A DNA stretch of 64,000 nt, taken from positions 16,530-80,529 of the forward strand of contig JACRIR010000209.1 of the NCBI GenBank assembly GCA_016215705.1, given 5' to 3'. Of the stretch, positions 1,235-61,940 are shown one piece after another (the first letter of the stretch is position 1; each line of letters opens with the position of its first letter). Source of the stretch: Candidatus Poribacteria bacterium. Lineage in GTDB: Bacteria; Abyssobacteria; SURF-5. The position numbers and the translations under genes are program-made. The notes below the pieces were generated by a model. It searched no databases. It saw only the letters and a list, made by a program, of their open reading frames with translations, and was not told the origin of the DNA.

Positions 1235-1437
1235 TCTCGCCTTGCCAAATCGTTGAAGCCATTAGGAGCGCGTGACCACGCCCGCGGCGTGGCTAATTGC
1301 GATAGAGACAGCGTGCCCATTACAGTCATTGCGAGCGGAGGGCCGCAGGCCCGAGCGAGGCAATCTCTCTTTTTTTGGCTTTCTCCCTTTCGCCTTGCTC
1401 CTTTCGCTTTACGCCTTTTCTTGGGAGGTAATCCATA

Positions 1438-4627: not shown

Positions 4628-4674
4628 GAGCATATTCGGGGACACGATGCCGCATCGTGTCCCCGAATATGCTC
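4628..4674. repeat. REP-like 47-bp palindrome 3 bp after the clpX stop; probable bidirectional terminator
   Basis: gagcatattcggggacacgatg-ccg-catcgtgtccccgaatatgctc. Confidence 0.85.
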
Positions 4675-4699: not shown

Positions 4700-4726
4700 G
4701 TCATTCTGAGCGAAGCGAAGAATCTC
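4700..4726. repeat. Solo copy of the 27-bp 'GTCATTCTGAGCGAAGCGAAGAATCTC' repeat core
   Basis: Exact core also present at 9226-9252, inverted at 9557-9583, 30223-30249 and 30280-30307, and degenerate at 56208-56235. Confidence 0.8.
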
Positions 4727-7071: not shown

Positions 7072-9171
7072 TCATGGATTTCCGGCGGGCACATCGTAAA
7101 TAAAAATGGAATAGCCGAGAACTTTCCTGGGTTTCAGCTTCTTGAGCCAGTCGTGGCAGTGTGGGTTGGCGAGATAGAGATTCTGGAGATAGGTGGCGCT
7201 TACAGCCCAGACGCCGGCAGAAGGCTCGCAACCATTGAGGTCGGCGTTGCTAAGGCCATAATACTCGAGCACGCCCCGGGGACCGAAATACTTTATCTTC
7301 ACGTCCCGGATTCTGTTTTCCTGCAAGTAGTTCATGAGATCGTTCAGATTCTGTCCCCAGTCGAGATTTGAATCCACAAGATATTTGTATCCTTTACTCG
7401 GCCCGCCGATCATCTCATTGAAGTATGCAAGATAGTGTGGGTATATCCACGCCGCTGAGCCCGCGTACCAAACACACAGAATCGCGAGCGCTCGTTTCCA
7501 TCGTTTGGATTCAAAGGAGGCAACCTTCCCGGCAAAAATGCAAAGGAGTGGAATCAATGGAAGGATGTATCGGATGCCTATGTTTATCCGAGATGGCAGG
7601 GAGAAGAAACCGATCATGATCAGGATTGAAAACAAGAGGAAACGTTCGTCAAATGTCCCCTTCCCCCCTTTGCCAAAGGGGGACGAAATGGAGTTCTCCT
7701 TTACAGAAGGATGAATAGTCGACTCCCTCTTTGCAGAGGGGGGAACAGTCGAGTCGCTATTTACAAAGCAACGAATGGCCGGGCTGCTCTTTACAGAGGG
7801 AGGAATAGTGGAGCCCTGCTCTGCAGAAGAGGGGACAACCTTGTCTTGTGGGCAGCCTTCTTGACTCCCCTTATGCAAAGGGGGGGAGGGGGGATTTGGA
7901 GAACAGGCTCTCTTTCCTCCTTTTTCAAGAGAGAATAATTTGCTGAGTGGTCGGCTCGATTTCAGGCTCGCCCCGGCAGCCGCAACCAGGCATATGATAA
8001 ACGGAATCGGAGTCTTGATGAGAAAAGCCACCCAGTAGAAGTACCACCAGCCCGTTCGCGAGATTTCTCCAAACAGGAAATTGTCTTTCCACCCTTTTGC
8101 TGCCGCGAGCTGTGTATAAATTCCAAGGATGTATGAATATGCGGGAATGCGAATGCCACGCAAGGCCAGCGCATCGACTGCCTGCCAAAAAGGTTTTTCG
8201 GCGACCAGCCTCTCTGCCTGCGGTTTCAGCCATTGCGGCATGAAGGGGGTTCCAAACTGGAAGCCGTAACCAGCCCAGACAACACAGGAAGCTATAAGTA
8301 AGATCAGCAGGAGGCATAGTAAATCCCCCCTCCCCCCCTTTGCAAAGGGGGGTAATGAAAACCTGATTCGGAGGGGGATTGCCTTTTCCACTCTCTTCAA
8401 AGGTGTCCCTGTTTCCTCTCCTCGCAAAGGTTCCCCTGTTTCTCCCCTTTGCAAAGGGGGGGAGGGGGGATTTACCAGCCGGAACAAGATAACTTCCAAC
8501 AACAGAATCGGAATCAGAATGAGTCCCGTGAACTTCGACAAAAGCGCGAGACCCAACGCCATGCCCGTAAGAACCATTCGCACGGCTGAAGGCGCTTGGA
8601 GGTATTTGTGAAATGAGTACAGCGCCAGCGTCATGGTGAACGCAAGCAGCATATCAGGCGTGGCAAGCTTACAGTGTGCGAGGATCGCCGGGCAAAGGGA
8701 ATATAAAAACAGGGAAACCAGCGCTGCGCCGGAACCATAAATCTCTCTTCCCCAACGATACACCAGGAGCCCCAGCAGCGCCGAGAGAAAGACGAACGGA
8801 ATGCGCGTAAGGAACATCATCAGGCGGGGAGATTGGCCGGATTCGAATATGAGCGATGGGCCTATATAGCGGCGGTAGACGTATTCCTTGTCCTCGAATC
8901 TGTCGGGATCGAGTTTCAACGGCAGGAGAAGAAGGCTGTTGACGTAATAGGGAAGCGGCGGATGCAATTGGAGCGCCACAATCTCCCAGTTCCTGGTTTC
9001 CAGCAACTGCCGGCCAATACCGATATAACTGGGCTCATCCCACGTGAGCGACGCGCGCCGCATGCTGCCCACCGCAAGCGCGAGGTGAATTGCCAGTAGC
9101 GCGGCAACTGCGAGGCGGGTTCTCATGTCATTCCGGGACCATTTGGTGTCATTCTGAGTCCTCGGTGTCAC
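7072..9171 (-). CDS. GT39/ArnT-like (PMT_2) membrane glycosyltransferase with two in-frame repeat/homopolymer insertions
   Basis: 699 aa, multi-TM; N-terminal DEPSYIGIGRQLLE...HPPLPYY resembles ArnT/PMT_2; ORF is continuous through repeat regions 7640-7905 and 8327-8480. Confidence 0.75.
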   Translation of the reverse strand: MTPRTQNDTKWSRNDMRTRLAVAALLAIHLALAVGSMRRASLTWDEPSYIGIGRQLLETRNWEIVALQLHPPLPYYVNSLLLLPLKLDPDRFEDKEYVYRRYIGPSLIFESGQSPRLMMFLTRIPFVFLSALLGLLVYRWGREIYGSGAALVSLFLYSLCPAILAHCKLATPDMLLAFTMTLALYSFHKYLQAPSAVRMVLTGMALGLALLSKFTGLILIPILLLEVILFRLVNPPSPPLQRGETGEPLRGEETGTPLKRVEKAIPLRIRFSLPPFAKGGRGDLLCLLLILLIASCVVWAGYGFQFGTPFMPQWLKPQAERLVAEKPFWQAVDALALRGIRIPAYSYILGIYTQLAAAKGWKDNFLFGEISRTGWWYFYWVAFLIKTPIPFIICLVAAAGASLKSSRPLSKLFSLEKGGKRACSPNPPSPPLHKGSQEGCPQDKVVPSSAEQGSTIPPSVKSSPAIRCFVNSDSTVPPSAKRESTIHPSVKENSISSPFGKGGKGTFDERFLLFSILIMIGFFSLPSRINIGIRYILPLIPLLCIFAGKVASFESKRWKRALAILCVWYAGSAAWIYPHYLAYFNEMIGGPSKGYKYLVDSNLDWGQNLNDLMNYLQENRIRDVKIKYFGPRGVLEYYGLSNADLNGCEPSAGVWAVSATYLQNLYLANPHCHDWLKKLKPRKVLGYSIFIYDVPAGNP
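7640..7905. repeat. Intragenic block of about five ~30-bp tandem units (CTCTTTACAGAGGGRGG...), flanked by C7/G5 and G7-A-G6 homopolymer tracts
   Basis: Encodes ~10-aa repeats STIPPSVKSS/STVPPSAKRE/STIHPSVKEN; palindromic motif ccctttgcaaaggg at both edges. Confidence 0.8.
8327..8480. repeat. Intragenic ~25-bp repeats bounded by inverted 'aaatcccccctccccccctttgcaaagggggg' ends (C6-T-C7 ... G7-A-G6); MITE-like, but in frame
   Basis: 8327-8364 is the reverse complement of 8454-8483; homopolymer runs of 6-7 nt lie inside the ORF. Confidence 0.8.
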
Positions 9172-9252
9172 ATTCTGAGCCCTTTGGTGTCATTCTAGCC
9201 CTCGGCGTCACATTCTGAGCCCTTCGGTGTCATTCTGAGCGAAGCGAAGAAT
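9144..9252. repeat. Five tandem ~21-bp units GGTGTCA(C)ATTCTGAGCCCTY ending in the 27-bp core gtcattctgagcgaagcgaagaatctc
   Basis: Read directly from the sequence; the core supplies the last 8 codons and the stop of the GIY-YIG ORF. Confidence 0.85.
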
Positions 9253-9544
9253 CTCCTTTCTCACACCAGCCATTGCTTAGGTCTTCCCATCGGGGGTTGA
9301 CCGCTTCGATCAAGGCCATCTTCTTTGCTCGCAGCCAGCCTTTGATTTGTTTTTCACGCGCGATAGCTGCCTGAACGTCATCGGTTTCTTCGAAGAATAC
9401 GAGGCGGGTGATATTGTATTTCTTTGTAAAACCGGGCACGAGTCTTTCCTTGTGCTCGTTCACTCTTCTAACCAAATCACCAGTTACGCCCGTGTACAGA
9501 CACCGTGATTTGTTGGTCATTATGTAAACATAATAACGCTTCAT
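9230..9544 (-). CDS. Small GIY-YIG nuclease-superfamily protein
   Basis: 104 aa; MKRYYVYIMTNKSRCLYTGVTGDLVRRVNEHK is a GIY-YIG motif; C-terminal ...GDSSLRSE* is encoded by the repeat core. Confidence 0.8.
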   Translation of the reverse strand: MKRYYVYIMTNKSRCLYTGVTGDLVRRVNEHKERLVPGFTKKYNITRLVFFEETDDVQAAIAREKQIKGWLRAKKMALIEAVNPRWEDLSNGWCEKGDSSLRSE

Positions 9545-9556
9545 TGGAGTGCAAGA

Positions 9557-9645
9557 AGAGATTCTTCGCTTCGCTCAGAATGACACCAGAGGGTTCAGAA
9601 TGATATTTTGCGCTCAGAATGGCACATTACGCCCGCGATAACATA
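9557..9645. repeat. Inverted copy of the 27-bp core plus two degenerate 21-bp units immediately upstream of the GIY-YIG start
   Basis: gagattcttcgcttcgctcagaatgacacc-agagggttcagaatgata-ttgcgctcagaatggcac. Confidence 0.8.
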
Positions 9646-9698
9646 GATTTGTGTCTTGTTGCCAATCCAAAATCTAGAATCCAAAATCGAAAATAAGG

Positions 9699-10691: not shown

Positions 10692-10727
10692 CGGCTACTT
10701 CTCCGGGAATTCCTTGCTCCTCTTTTC

Positions 10728-10768
10728 GTTATTCGGGGACACGATGTCGCATCGTGTCCCCGAATAAC
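10728..10768. repeat. REP-like 41-bp palindrome between the ADH synthase stop and the DHQS-II start
   Basis: gttattcggggacacgatg-tcg-catcgtgtccccgaataac. Confidence 0.85.
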
Positions 10769-10770
10769 AG

Positions 10771-28772: not shown

Positions 28773-28899
28773 GCCGCACACCAAGTGGATTCCCGCTTTC
28801 AGGGGAGTGACACAGAAACAAACATGCGGATCGCTTCAGGTTCCTTTGAGAATCACGACGGAGATTCCAGGAATCGGGAAAAACAGTACAGAATCATGC

Positions 28900-30222: not shown

Positions 30223-30307
30223 GTCATTCTGAGCAAAGCGAAGAATCTCGGGGGAAATCGTTCAATATGCTCCTCAAAGAGGATTCTTCGCTTCGCTCAG
30301 GATGGCG
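30223..30307. repeat. Inverted pair of the 27-bp repeat core forming a ~27-bp-stem hairpin with a 30-nt spacer
   Basis: gtcattctgagcaaagcgaagaatctc ... gaggattcttcgcttcgctcaggatggc; lies in the intergenic region before the UDP-sugar dehydrogenase gene. Confidence 0.85.
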
Positions 30308-41715: not shown

Positions 41716-41760
41716 AGAAAAATCGGGGACACGATGCCGCATCGTGTCCCCGATTTTTCT
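41716..41760. repeat. REP-like 45-bp palindrome ~55 bp after the TPR protein stop
   Basis: agaaaaatcggggacacgatg-ccg-catcgtgtccccgatttttct. Confidence 0.85.
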
Positions 41761-56207: not shown

Positions 56208-56235
56208 GTCATTCTGAGCCAAACGAAGAATCTCC
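56208..56235. repeat. Degenerate solo copy of the 27-bp repeat core
   Basis: gtcattctgagccaaacgaagaatctcc. Confidence 0.7.
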
Positions 56236-60414: not shown

Positions 60415-60436
60415 GGTTTCTCTCCCGTCTCTCGAC

Positions 60437-60503
60437 TAACCATGAACCACTAACCACTAACCACTAACCACTAACCATAAACCATGAACCATGAACCATG
60501 AAC
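60437..60503. repeat. Heptamer SSR array (CTAACCA x5, then TGAACCA x3) directly upstream of the sulfatase gene
   Basis: ctaaccatgaaccactaaccactaaccactaaccactaaccataaaccatgaaccatgaaccatgaact. Confidence 0.85.
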
Positions 60504-60545: not shown

Positions 60546-61919
60546 TTATCCGTGACAGCGCTTGAACTTAAGTCCGCTGCCGCATGGGCAAGGGTCGTTT
60601 CGGCCTGCTTTCGCGAGCTTTGCCTTCAGTCGGGCATCTTCCACTGCAAGCATTTGCATGACTTCTGCTGGCGCGCGCCGTTGCTTCAAGAGTTCTGCCA
60701 TGAGCTTCATCGGGCGGGCGATGTGCGTAAAGAATGCTTTCAAACCGGCGCATAAGTAATTGAGTCCGGTGGCGCCGTCCGGTGTTTCGCAAAACCGGTT
60801 TTTCGGGCACTCCCCATTGCAGGCAAACAACACGACACATTCACGGCAACAGCGGGGGAGAGCGTCTCGTTTGTCCAGCCCGAACCTGTGCTGCTTGTCT
60901 GAAGCTGCAAGCTCAATCAGCGGCTGCTCCATGATGTTGCCAAGGTAATGCTTCGGTTCCACAAAATGATCGCAGGAATAAAGGTCGCCGTTATGTTCCA
61001 AAACCATAGCGAACCCGCAGGTCGAAGCCGTTGTGCATATGGCGGACGGCGCTCCTGCCCACGACGCAAGCGCTGCGTCAAAATGGTTCACGAAAATACG
61101 ACCTACGTCCTTTTGGATCCATTCGTCAAAGATTGCGCATAGAAAACGGCCGTACTGCTCAGGCCCGACCGACCGTTCCGTGACCGTGTTACCCTCCACG
61201 AATCCCGTCTCATTGTCTCGCTCGACAATTGGAATGAACTGGATAAAGCGTGCGCCGACCTCATCACGAAAGAACTTGTAGACTTCCACCGAATGATCGG
61301 CATTAGCCGCATTGACTGTGGCCAGGATATTGAATTCCACTTTGTGCTGATGCATCACCTGAACGGCTCGCATCACTTTGTCGAATACCGGCCTCCCTGT
61401 TTTGTCCATCCTGTAGGCGTCATGCAGTTCCCTCGGTCCATCGAGGCTGAGGCCGACTAGAAACTGGTGCTCATGGAAGAAGCGAAGCCATTCCTCGTCG
61501 AGAAGGACGCCGTTCGTCTGAATGGTGTTCTGAATGGCAACGCCGGACTTTAGATGTTTTCTTTCGTACTCGATGGACTTGCGGAAGAAATCGAGTCCCA
61601 TCAACGTCGGCTCGCCACCCTGCCACGCAATAGTGACGGACTGCTCGCCGCAAGCCTCTATCACCTGGCGGATATAGCTCTCAAGTACCGCGTCGCCCAT
61701 CCGGAAATTGCTCCCCGGGTACAGATTCTCCTTCTTCAAGAAAAAGCAATACTGGCATCCCAGGTTGCAGACTGCGCCCGTAGGCTTCGCCATGATGTGA
61801 AAAGGAGTGTCAGCCACAGAGTCCACCGGGACAACCGAGTTCTTAATCGAAATTGCGCATATGAATTCCCGCCCGCATATCCGCGGTTGCTGCACAACCG
61901 AAGAGATTGGATAATCCAA
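60546..61919 (-). CDS. Anaerobic sulfatase-maturating enzyme (radical SAM/SPASM, anSME)
   Basis: 457 aa; FHIMAKPTGAVCNLGCQYCFF radical-SAM CxxxCxxC; C-terminal SPASM cysteines; lies between two sulfatase genes. Confidence 0.85.
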   Translation of the reverse strand: MDYPISSVVQQPRICGREFICAISIKNSVVPVDSVADTPFHIMAKPTGAVCNLGCQYCFFLKKENLYPGSNFRMGDAVLESYIRQVIEACGEQSVTIAWQGGEPTLMGLDFFRKSIEYERKHLKSGVAIQNTIQTNGVLLDEEWLRFFHEHQFLVGLSLDGPRELHDAYRMDKTGRPVFDKVMRAVQVMHQHKVEFNILATVNAANADHSVEVYKFFRDEVGARFIQFIPIVERDNETGFVEGNTVTERSVGPEQYGRFLCAIFDEWIQKDVGRIFVNHFDAALASWAGAPSAICTTASTCGFAMVLEHNGDLYSCDHFVEPKHYLGNIMEQPLIELAASDKQHRFGLDKRDALPRCCRECVVLFACNGECPKNRFCETPDGATGLNYLCAGLKAFFTHIARPMKLMAELLKQRRAPAEVMQMLAVEDARLKAKLAKAGRNDPCPCGSGLKFKRCHG

Positions 61920-61940
61920 AATCTAAAATCCAGGACGGAC

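Follow-up and report, generated by a model that had tools for sequence, protein, structure and literature searches.

Single-domain GIY-YIG nucleases of about 94 amino acids (aa), named Ssn, were described by Chenal et al. (Nat Commun 2025; PMC11893778). SsnA of Neisseria meningitidis has 94 aa, falls in CDD cd10448 (GIY-YIG_unchar_3) and targets the NTS, an oriented GTCATTC...GAATC hairpin repeat (CGTCATTCCCGCGMAVGCGGGAATCYRG) which is the oriented long form of dRS3 and is bound only as single-stranded DNA (ssDNA) (PMC11893778). The window analysed here is a 64-kb stretch of contig JACRIR010000209.1 from an uncultured Poribacteria metagenome-assembled genome (MAG). It contains a gene for a 104-aa GIY-YIG protein with copies of a short repeat on both sides. 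This locus very probably consists of an Ssn-family nuclease gene and its cognate hairpin repeat, the Ssn-related motif (SRM). The Ssn/SRM system was already described in 2025, and the window locus is a further Ssn member with a variant of the repeat sequence.

Ssn cleaves a few nucleotides upstream of its repeat, while duplex DNA, RNA and the reverse strand are inactive; N. meningitidis SsnA does not bind RNA (PMC11893778). The nucleotides ahead of the palindrome are important for cutting and the C behind it for binding, and half-sites split between two oligonucleotides can be cleaved (PMC11893778). Binding of ssDNA only and cleavage upstream of the repeat were demonstrated for four homologues, and SRMs are found near 71% of Ssn homologues, with 42% having them on both sides (PMC11893778). 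The measured effect of Ssn in Neisseria is on transformation. The NTS-ssnA-NTS arrangement was likened to an insertion sequence and to REP/RAYT, with mobility raised only as a hypothesis in the discussion (PMC11893778). A literature search on Ssn, cd10448 and COG2827 found no follow-up beyond the 2025 paper, and a full-text search for the core sequence of the window repeat returned only unrelated primer and plasmid matches.

The ssn gene of the window

The window protein matches Pfam PF01541 (GIY-YIG, E=9e-15) over residues 4-75 and has no other domain. An NCBI entry from a Candidatus Poribacteria MAG, located on an 86-kb contig, is 100% identical to it. The 94-aa SsnA orthologue of N. gonorrhoeae and the window protein are 48% identical over 85 residues (residues 5-89 of 94). 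The E value for this pair is 3e-18 by tblastn in a 7.3 Gb plasmid collection, 5e-28 in a pairwise comparison and 1.5e-23 against the window. The orthologue is a 94-aa open reading frame (ORF) which has Y6, Y17 and E64, the residues mutated in PMC11893778, and canonical NTS copies on its flanks. Its source, NZ_CP119140.1, is a 2.17-Mb N. gonorrhoeae chromosome which is misfiled as a plasmid in PLSDB and almost unannotated. The published family threshold is a BLAST E<1e-10 with at least 75% cover to Neisseria SsnA (PMC11893778). The window protein lies within both limits when the N. gonorrhoeae orthologue, not N. meningitidis CAX49033.1, is used as the reference. Residues Y7, Y17, R27 and E64 of the window protein, the catalytic Tyr/Tyr/Arg/Glu, are invariant in the alignment to the Neisseria protein. 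The protein therefore has the size (104 aa, below 150 aa), the single GIY-YIG domain and the catalytic residues of an Ssn nuclease.

NCBIfam and PADLOC searches with the window protein gave no match. The only relative in a PDB search is a distant UPF0213/YhbQ-type protein (1ZG2, BH0048; E=3e-4), which is also a small stand-alone GIY-YIG domain but is remote in sequence; the search found no Ssn structure. There is no second ssn copy in the window. The assignment would place this locus, along with thousands of genes annotated only as 'GIY-YIG nuclease family protein', in the Ssn/SRM system.

Repeats around the gene and elsewhere in the window

The gene and the repeat features are as follows.

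9230-9544, minus strand: ssn gene from the ORF list, 104 aa, single-domain GIY-YIG nuclease
9229-9255, plus strand: full SRM-type core, exact 27-mer, on the strand opposite to the gene and overlapping the 3' end of the ORF
9558-9584, minus strand: full SRM-type core, exact 27-mer, on the gene strand and ending 13 nt upstream of the ATG
9127-9228, plus strand: five tandem 5'-half units, GTCA(CA)TTCTGAG plus an 8-9 nt spacer (TRF and sequence)
9585-9625, minus strand: two degenerate 5'-half units, 5' of the upstream core, with heads TCATTCTGAA (9594-9603) and CCATTCTGAG (9613-9622)
4700-4726, plus strand: solo full core, intergenic, exact match
30223-30249, plus strand: left-hand core of a REPIN-like inverted doublet that has no gene, 1 mismatch
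30279-30306, minus strand: right, diverged doublet core, GCCATCCTGAGCGAAGCGAAGAATCCTC, 29 nt from the left core
56208-56234, plus strand: solo core, intergenic, with 2 substitutions in the apical mini-hairpin
1325-1365, plus strand: probable second SRM subtype (tentative, from sequence and fold), GTC-ATTGC-GA-GC...GC-GA-G-GCAAT-C with a nested apical GGGCC-GCA-GGCCC hairpin

The core occurs as the exact 27-mer GTCATTCTGAGCGAAGCGAAGAATCTC at 4700 (plus), 9229 (plus) and 9558-9584 (minus), with one mismatch at 30223 (plus) and with two at 56208 (plus); none is expected from shuffled sequence. Inverted arms at 9211-9268 and 9545-9602, 58 nt long and 86% complementary, bracket the ORF. The right arm begins directly 5' of the ATG and the left arm takes in the last 39 nt of the ORF. 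Read in gene orientation, two half units and a core point towards the ATG, and behind the ORF a core and five half units point back towards the gene. TRF reports the tandem array at 9126-9240 with a period of 20-21 nt, a higher-order period of 40 nt and 91% matches. The array runs directly into the full core. The last eight codons of ssn (including DSSLRSE) and its TGA stop come from the downstream core.

An earlier sequence-only reading had proposed most of this arrangement, and the GIY-YIG gene, its bracketing by inverted repeat arrays, the inverted core with two degenerate units, the core encoding the last residues and stop of the nuclease and the solo copies at 4700 and 56208 are all found again. 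Its five tandem units plus core are present with the qualification that four units are good and the first, which abuts the GT39 start codon, is degenerate. The hairpin at 30223-30307 had been called perfect, which it is not, since its second arm (GCCATCCTGAGCGAAGCGAAGAATCC) has three substitutions and an offset. The doublet at 30223-30306 folds as ssDNA at -19.3 kcal/mol (z=-4.6).

An Rfam search of the whole window found only four tRNAs and no family at the ssn locus or at the cores. The tRNAs form a cluster at 522-1231, and the probable second SRM subtype at 1325-1365 follows within 100 nt. Modular apical insertions like the one in this element are also present in related loci.

A repeat subtype with tandem G.A mismatches

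The link between gene and repeat was compared across 80 homologous loci that represent more than 15 phyla and whose proteins are 64-77% identical to the window protein. Heads of the GTCATNCTGAG type occur within 400 bp of the gene in 79 of them, so the link is a general one. The window core has the GTCATTC...GAATC frame in common with the NTS. The layout seen most often (26/75 loci) is a convergent pair of cores, plus upstream and minus downstream when read along the gene.

The 211 cores compared suggest a shared structure. CTGA...GAAG is invariant, and a variable triplet (ATT, ATC, ACC, ACT, ATG, GTG, GTC, ATA, GCT or GTT) has a complementary 3' partner in 87% of the cores, with 10 Watson-Crick-complementary combinations. 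Covariation is also seen in the apical stem, which takes the forms GC-GNA-GC, AC-GNA-GT, GT-GAA-AC and GCC-GCA-GGC. Conservation extends to the flanks, with T at -1 (92%) and TC behind the core. Covariation thus supports a predicted hairpin T-GTC-ATNCT-GA-GC-GNA-GC-GA-AGN'AT-C-TC with tandem G.A mismatches and a GNA triloop.

Some observations weigh against assigning this repeat to the SRMs. The published pattern, HGTCWYN(0-2)YYVSBRHN(0-5)WNVSBRGN(0-2)RNCYNB, taken literally matches none of the window cores, because the stem has G.A where the pattern needs S/B/R. The predicted ssDNA hairpin of a single core is weak (-1.9 kcal/mol, z=0.3) compared with that of the Neisseria NTS (-10.6 kcal/mol, z=-5). 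The cores nearest to Neisseria ssnA are oriented opposite to those of the window, and the layout is not strictly conserved. The sole literal match to the pattern in the window (28785-28812) was dropped as it is at chance level, with 0.46 expected.

When a single core or the arrays are folded as ssDNA by the nearest-neighbour method, the result is no better than for shuffled sequences; therefore, support for the structure comes from covariation. Nearest-neighbour parameters give no credit to tandem G.A pairs or GNA triloops, while in DNA both d(GCGNAGC) mini-hairpins and sheared tandem G.A pairs have an unusually high stability. These uncredited G.A pairs and the GNA triloop may account for the weak predicted energy of the core. 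Judged by its sequence, the G.A-mismatch repeat appears to be a distinct SRM subtype which the published pattern misses, a comparison that covers the pattern and leaves the 29 curated examples of the paper outside it.

The subtype, GTC-ATNCT-GA-GC-GNA-GC-GA-AGN'AT-C, is large and spans phyla. Since the published pattern misses it, the number of homologues with flanking repeats has probably been put too low in the published counts. Together, the GNA triloop and the invariant G.A mismatches would form a distinct recognition structure, which could offer a new cleavage specificity for ssDNA tools.

Half-unit arrays and the repeat-encoded tail

The half units of the window have counterparts in relatives. 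One to four 5'-half units ahead of a full core are found in 21/81 related loci, and a full core terminates 25 of 31 arrays. The arrays are polar, with 33 pairs of adjacent 5' heads compared with 6 pairs of adjacent 3' tails (about five times as frequent) at similar totals. The homologue on a Planktothrix agardhii plasmid has half units and a full core on both sides of the gene, and N. gonorrhoeae ssnA is adjoined by a half unit and a full NTS. Tandem or partial repeats go unmentioned in PMC11893778. A CRISPR-like reading of the arrays as repeats plus spacers was rejected, since the spacers within an array are near-identical duplications.

The 76%-identical P. agardhii homologue (in locus L002, 1-3270, from plasmid NZ_LR882964.1) lies among defence genes, with a type IIL MmeI-like restriction-modification gene on one side and DISARM drmA on the other.

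The repeat-encoded end of the protein also recurs. DSSLRSE is the terminus of 21 and DPSLRSG that of 7 among the 120 best homologues, and others stop at about residue 93-96. The arrangement at 9229-9255 recurs in at least nine related loci, where a core begins 4 nt past the protein match. Read on its reverse strand, the core yields the DSSLRSE tail, and the invariant TCA in its head yields the TGA stop; therefore, the tail is a by-product of a repeat abutting the gene. It is a caution for gene calling. A 166-aa homologue from Chloroflexota (P0057) has a 70-aa N-terminal extension with a duplicated SDPAMRNRLSGLLFSLSLRVTDG segment, and this extension is probably an over-called start which reads through upstream repeats.

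The locus thus resembles the Neisseria system in its single-domain GIY-YIG protein (about 94-104 aa) with the catalytic residues kept, in the repeats on both sides of the gene, in the scattered intergenic copies and in the half unit plus full repeat beside the gene, which N. gonorrhoeae has too. It differs in that the window stem has tandem G.A mismatches which never vary and, at its apex, a GC-GNA-GC mini-hairpin, whereas the NTS stem (ATTCCCGC/GCGGGAAT) is fully paired. The window core also overlaps the end of the ORF and encodes the tail and stop, the arrays reach five 5'-half units, and the host is a Poribacteria MAG. The G.A-mismatch subtype, the polar 5'-half arrays and the repeat-supplied DSSLRSE and stop are three details absent from PMC11893778. 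Neisseria dRS3 and the intergenic mosaic elements likewise form clusters of full and partial repeats, but they have another stem sequence and belong to another phylum, and any role of theirs in phage integration or antigen-gene diversity is not transferable.

Proposed mechanism

Extrapolating from the tested Ssn homologues, the core would fold as GTC-ATTCT-GA-GC-GAA-GC-GA-AGAAT-C when the DNA becomes single-stranded during replication, during repair or as incoming DNA. The 12-kDa protein would bind this hairpin together with the unpaired GTC head and the trailing C, and would cut the strand it is bound to, a few nucleotides 5' of GTC, leaving duplex DNA and RNA untouched. The cores at 4700, 30223/30279 and 56208 would be further targets of the same enzyme. 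The cellular role is probably the control of recombination or of uptake of repeat-bearing ssDNA, possibly combined with a REP/RAYT-like spread of the repeats.

The tandem 5'-half units sit on the side of the core where Ssn cleavage is expected. On the simplest reading, which is purely conjectural, they would be by-products of repeated cleavage followed by repair or slippage. Just as conjecturally, they may be extra 5' arms able to pair with the single 3' arm. The 5'-sided arrays could be a testable handle on where and whether Ssn cuts in vivo. A bolder proposal, for which the odds are poor, is that the polar arrays are traces of repeated Ssn cutting and repair in vivo and that the gene, nested between convergent cores, makes up with the gene-less doublets a REPIN-like system which propagates itself by means of a GIY-YIG ssDNA nuclease. 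If true, this would amount to a kind of transposition based on a catalytic fold that is not known to mobilise bacterial DNA.

Gain, loss and alternative explanations

There are indirect signs in sequence comparisons that the cassette and the doublets may be gained or lost. The metagenomic relative L083 keeps the order aroA'-DHQS-GT39, with identities of 82% for DHQS, 77% for aroA' and 73% for GT39, and its DHQS-GT39 spacer of about 190 nt contains neither ssn nor the repeat. This empty orthologous site, like the doublet difference described next, supports the selfish-element reading only indirectly. A 253-nt doublet with arrays lies directly past the ssn stop in P. agardhii and is missing in P. 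paucivesiculata, where the flanks are 94-98% identical. Both differences could be an insertion or a deletion, and no target duplication is seen. MAGs assigned to Izemoplasmatales (L067:1273-1628) and Dehalococcoidales (L072:1-357) have 96% DNA identity over ssn only, and the identity breaks off no more than 2 nt from where the downstream core has its outer end. This is either a recent cross-phylum transfer or a binning error. Two ssn paralogues in one MAG are only 75% identical. The search for a target-site duplication, a clean junction or a second identical copy found none.

A close analogy for mobility is REP/REPIN with RAYT (TnpA_REP), along with the enterobacterial BIMEs. These too have a short hairpin repeat which is scattered through intergenic DNA and forms inverted doublets, and their single-copy gene for an ssDNA enzyme that recognises the hairpin has its own repeats on its flanks. 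The window enzyme is unlike RAYT in being GIY-YIG rather than HUH/Y1 and in having no known strand-transfer chemistry, and the repeat sequence is unrelated.

An autonomous mobile element, whose GIY-YIG protein moves the cassette and the gene-less doublets by excision and re-insertion in the manner of RAYT/REPIN or IS200/IS605 and leaves solo cores as footprints, is compatible with an Ssn/SRM locus and is a possible, though unlikely, addition to it. It would explain the convergent core pair that brackets the gene here and in 26/75 related loci, the gene-less doublet at 30223-30306, the L083 spacer without gene and repeat, the doublet that differs between the two Planktothrix species and the 96% identity that ends at a core, and the Ssn authors raised the same analogy (PMC11893778). 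Set against this, the window has a single ssn copy, neither a target-site duplication nor a clean junction was found, the paralogues of one MAG have diverged to 75% identity and the cross-phylum identity could be a binning error. The paired hairpins lie on opposite strands, unlike the ends of IS200/IS605, and the protein does not qualify as an HUH/Y1 transposase, GIY-YIG being its sole domain. GIY-YIG enzymes are not known to join DNA. The activity shown for Ssn is hydrolytic ssDNA cleavage only (PMC11893778). The sequence-only reading is therefore upheld in its link between nuclease and repeat, including the solo and doublet copies (79/80 loci and the published Ssn/SRM system), while its nuclease-driven selfish element is demonstrated neither here nor in published work.

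The remaining alternatives do without an Ssn-type function. The repeats could be ordinary REP-like intergenic hairpins that work as RNA, ending transcription, stabilising mRNA or closing the ssn mRNA through a 5'-3' stem, with no functional tie to the nuclease; all cores are indeed intergenic or at gene ends, and a transcript could pair the two arms that enclose the ORF. This is very unlikely given the near-universal co-location with ssn homologues across phyla (79/80) and given the conservation of the unpaired GTC head, of T at -1 and of the TC tail, which points to protein recognition more than to a plain stem. No terminator-like site is predicted, there is no T-run behind the cores, the single hairpin is weak (-1.9 kcal/mol), no Rfam family matches, and N. 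meningitidis SsnA lacks RNA binding (PMC11893778). The absence of the cassette at the orthologous site of L083 would also suit a homing-type endonuclease that cuts duplex DNA and copies itself into empty alleles. GIY-YIG homing endonucleases exist. This protein is a single 104-aa domain with no added DNA-binding module, its gene is intergenic and outside any intron or conserved gene, and the tested family members leave duplex DNA uncut (PMC11893778), which makes homing the least credible explanation.

Neighbouring gene and other repeats

The GT39 ORF (7072-9126, minus strand) most likely starts at the ATG at 9126, as supported by the L083 orthologue. Because of this start, the half-unit array fills the 103-nt gap between the ssn stop and the GT39 ATG, the two genes being co-directional. 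The arrays had been proposed as the promoter region of GT39, which is unsupported, since promoter prediction on the minus strand gave no sigma-70-like site in the arrays ahead of this gene. Within the GT39 ORF, at 7644-7904 and 8319-8475, there is a G/C-rich palindromic element (CCCCTTTGCAAAGGGGGGGAGGGGGGATTT) with inverted pairs up to 95% complementary, and the frame stays open. Its copies encode PPL.KGG.GD-like stretches and recall in-frame insertions of palindromic elements.

The window also has a second, unrelated palindromic repeat family (...ATTCGGGGACACGATG-CCGC-CATCGTGTCCCCGAAT...) at 4630-4672, 10727-10769 and 41717-41759, with a partial copy at 1010-1029. There are seven arm matches compared with 0.01 expected. 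The copies are intergenic; one lies directly before the solo core at 4700 and another between aroA' and DHQS. Heptamer arrays are found as well, with AATCCAA repeated four times at 9664-9694, just past the DHQS stop, and again at 61913-61932, and with AACCATG repeated nine times at 60435-60503.

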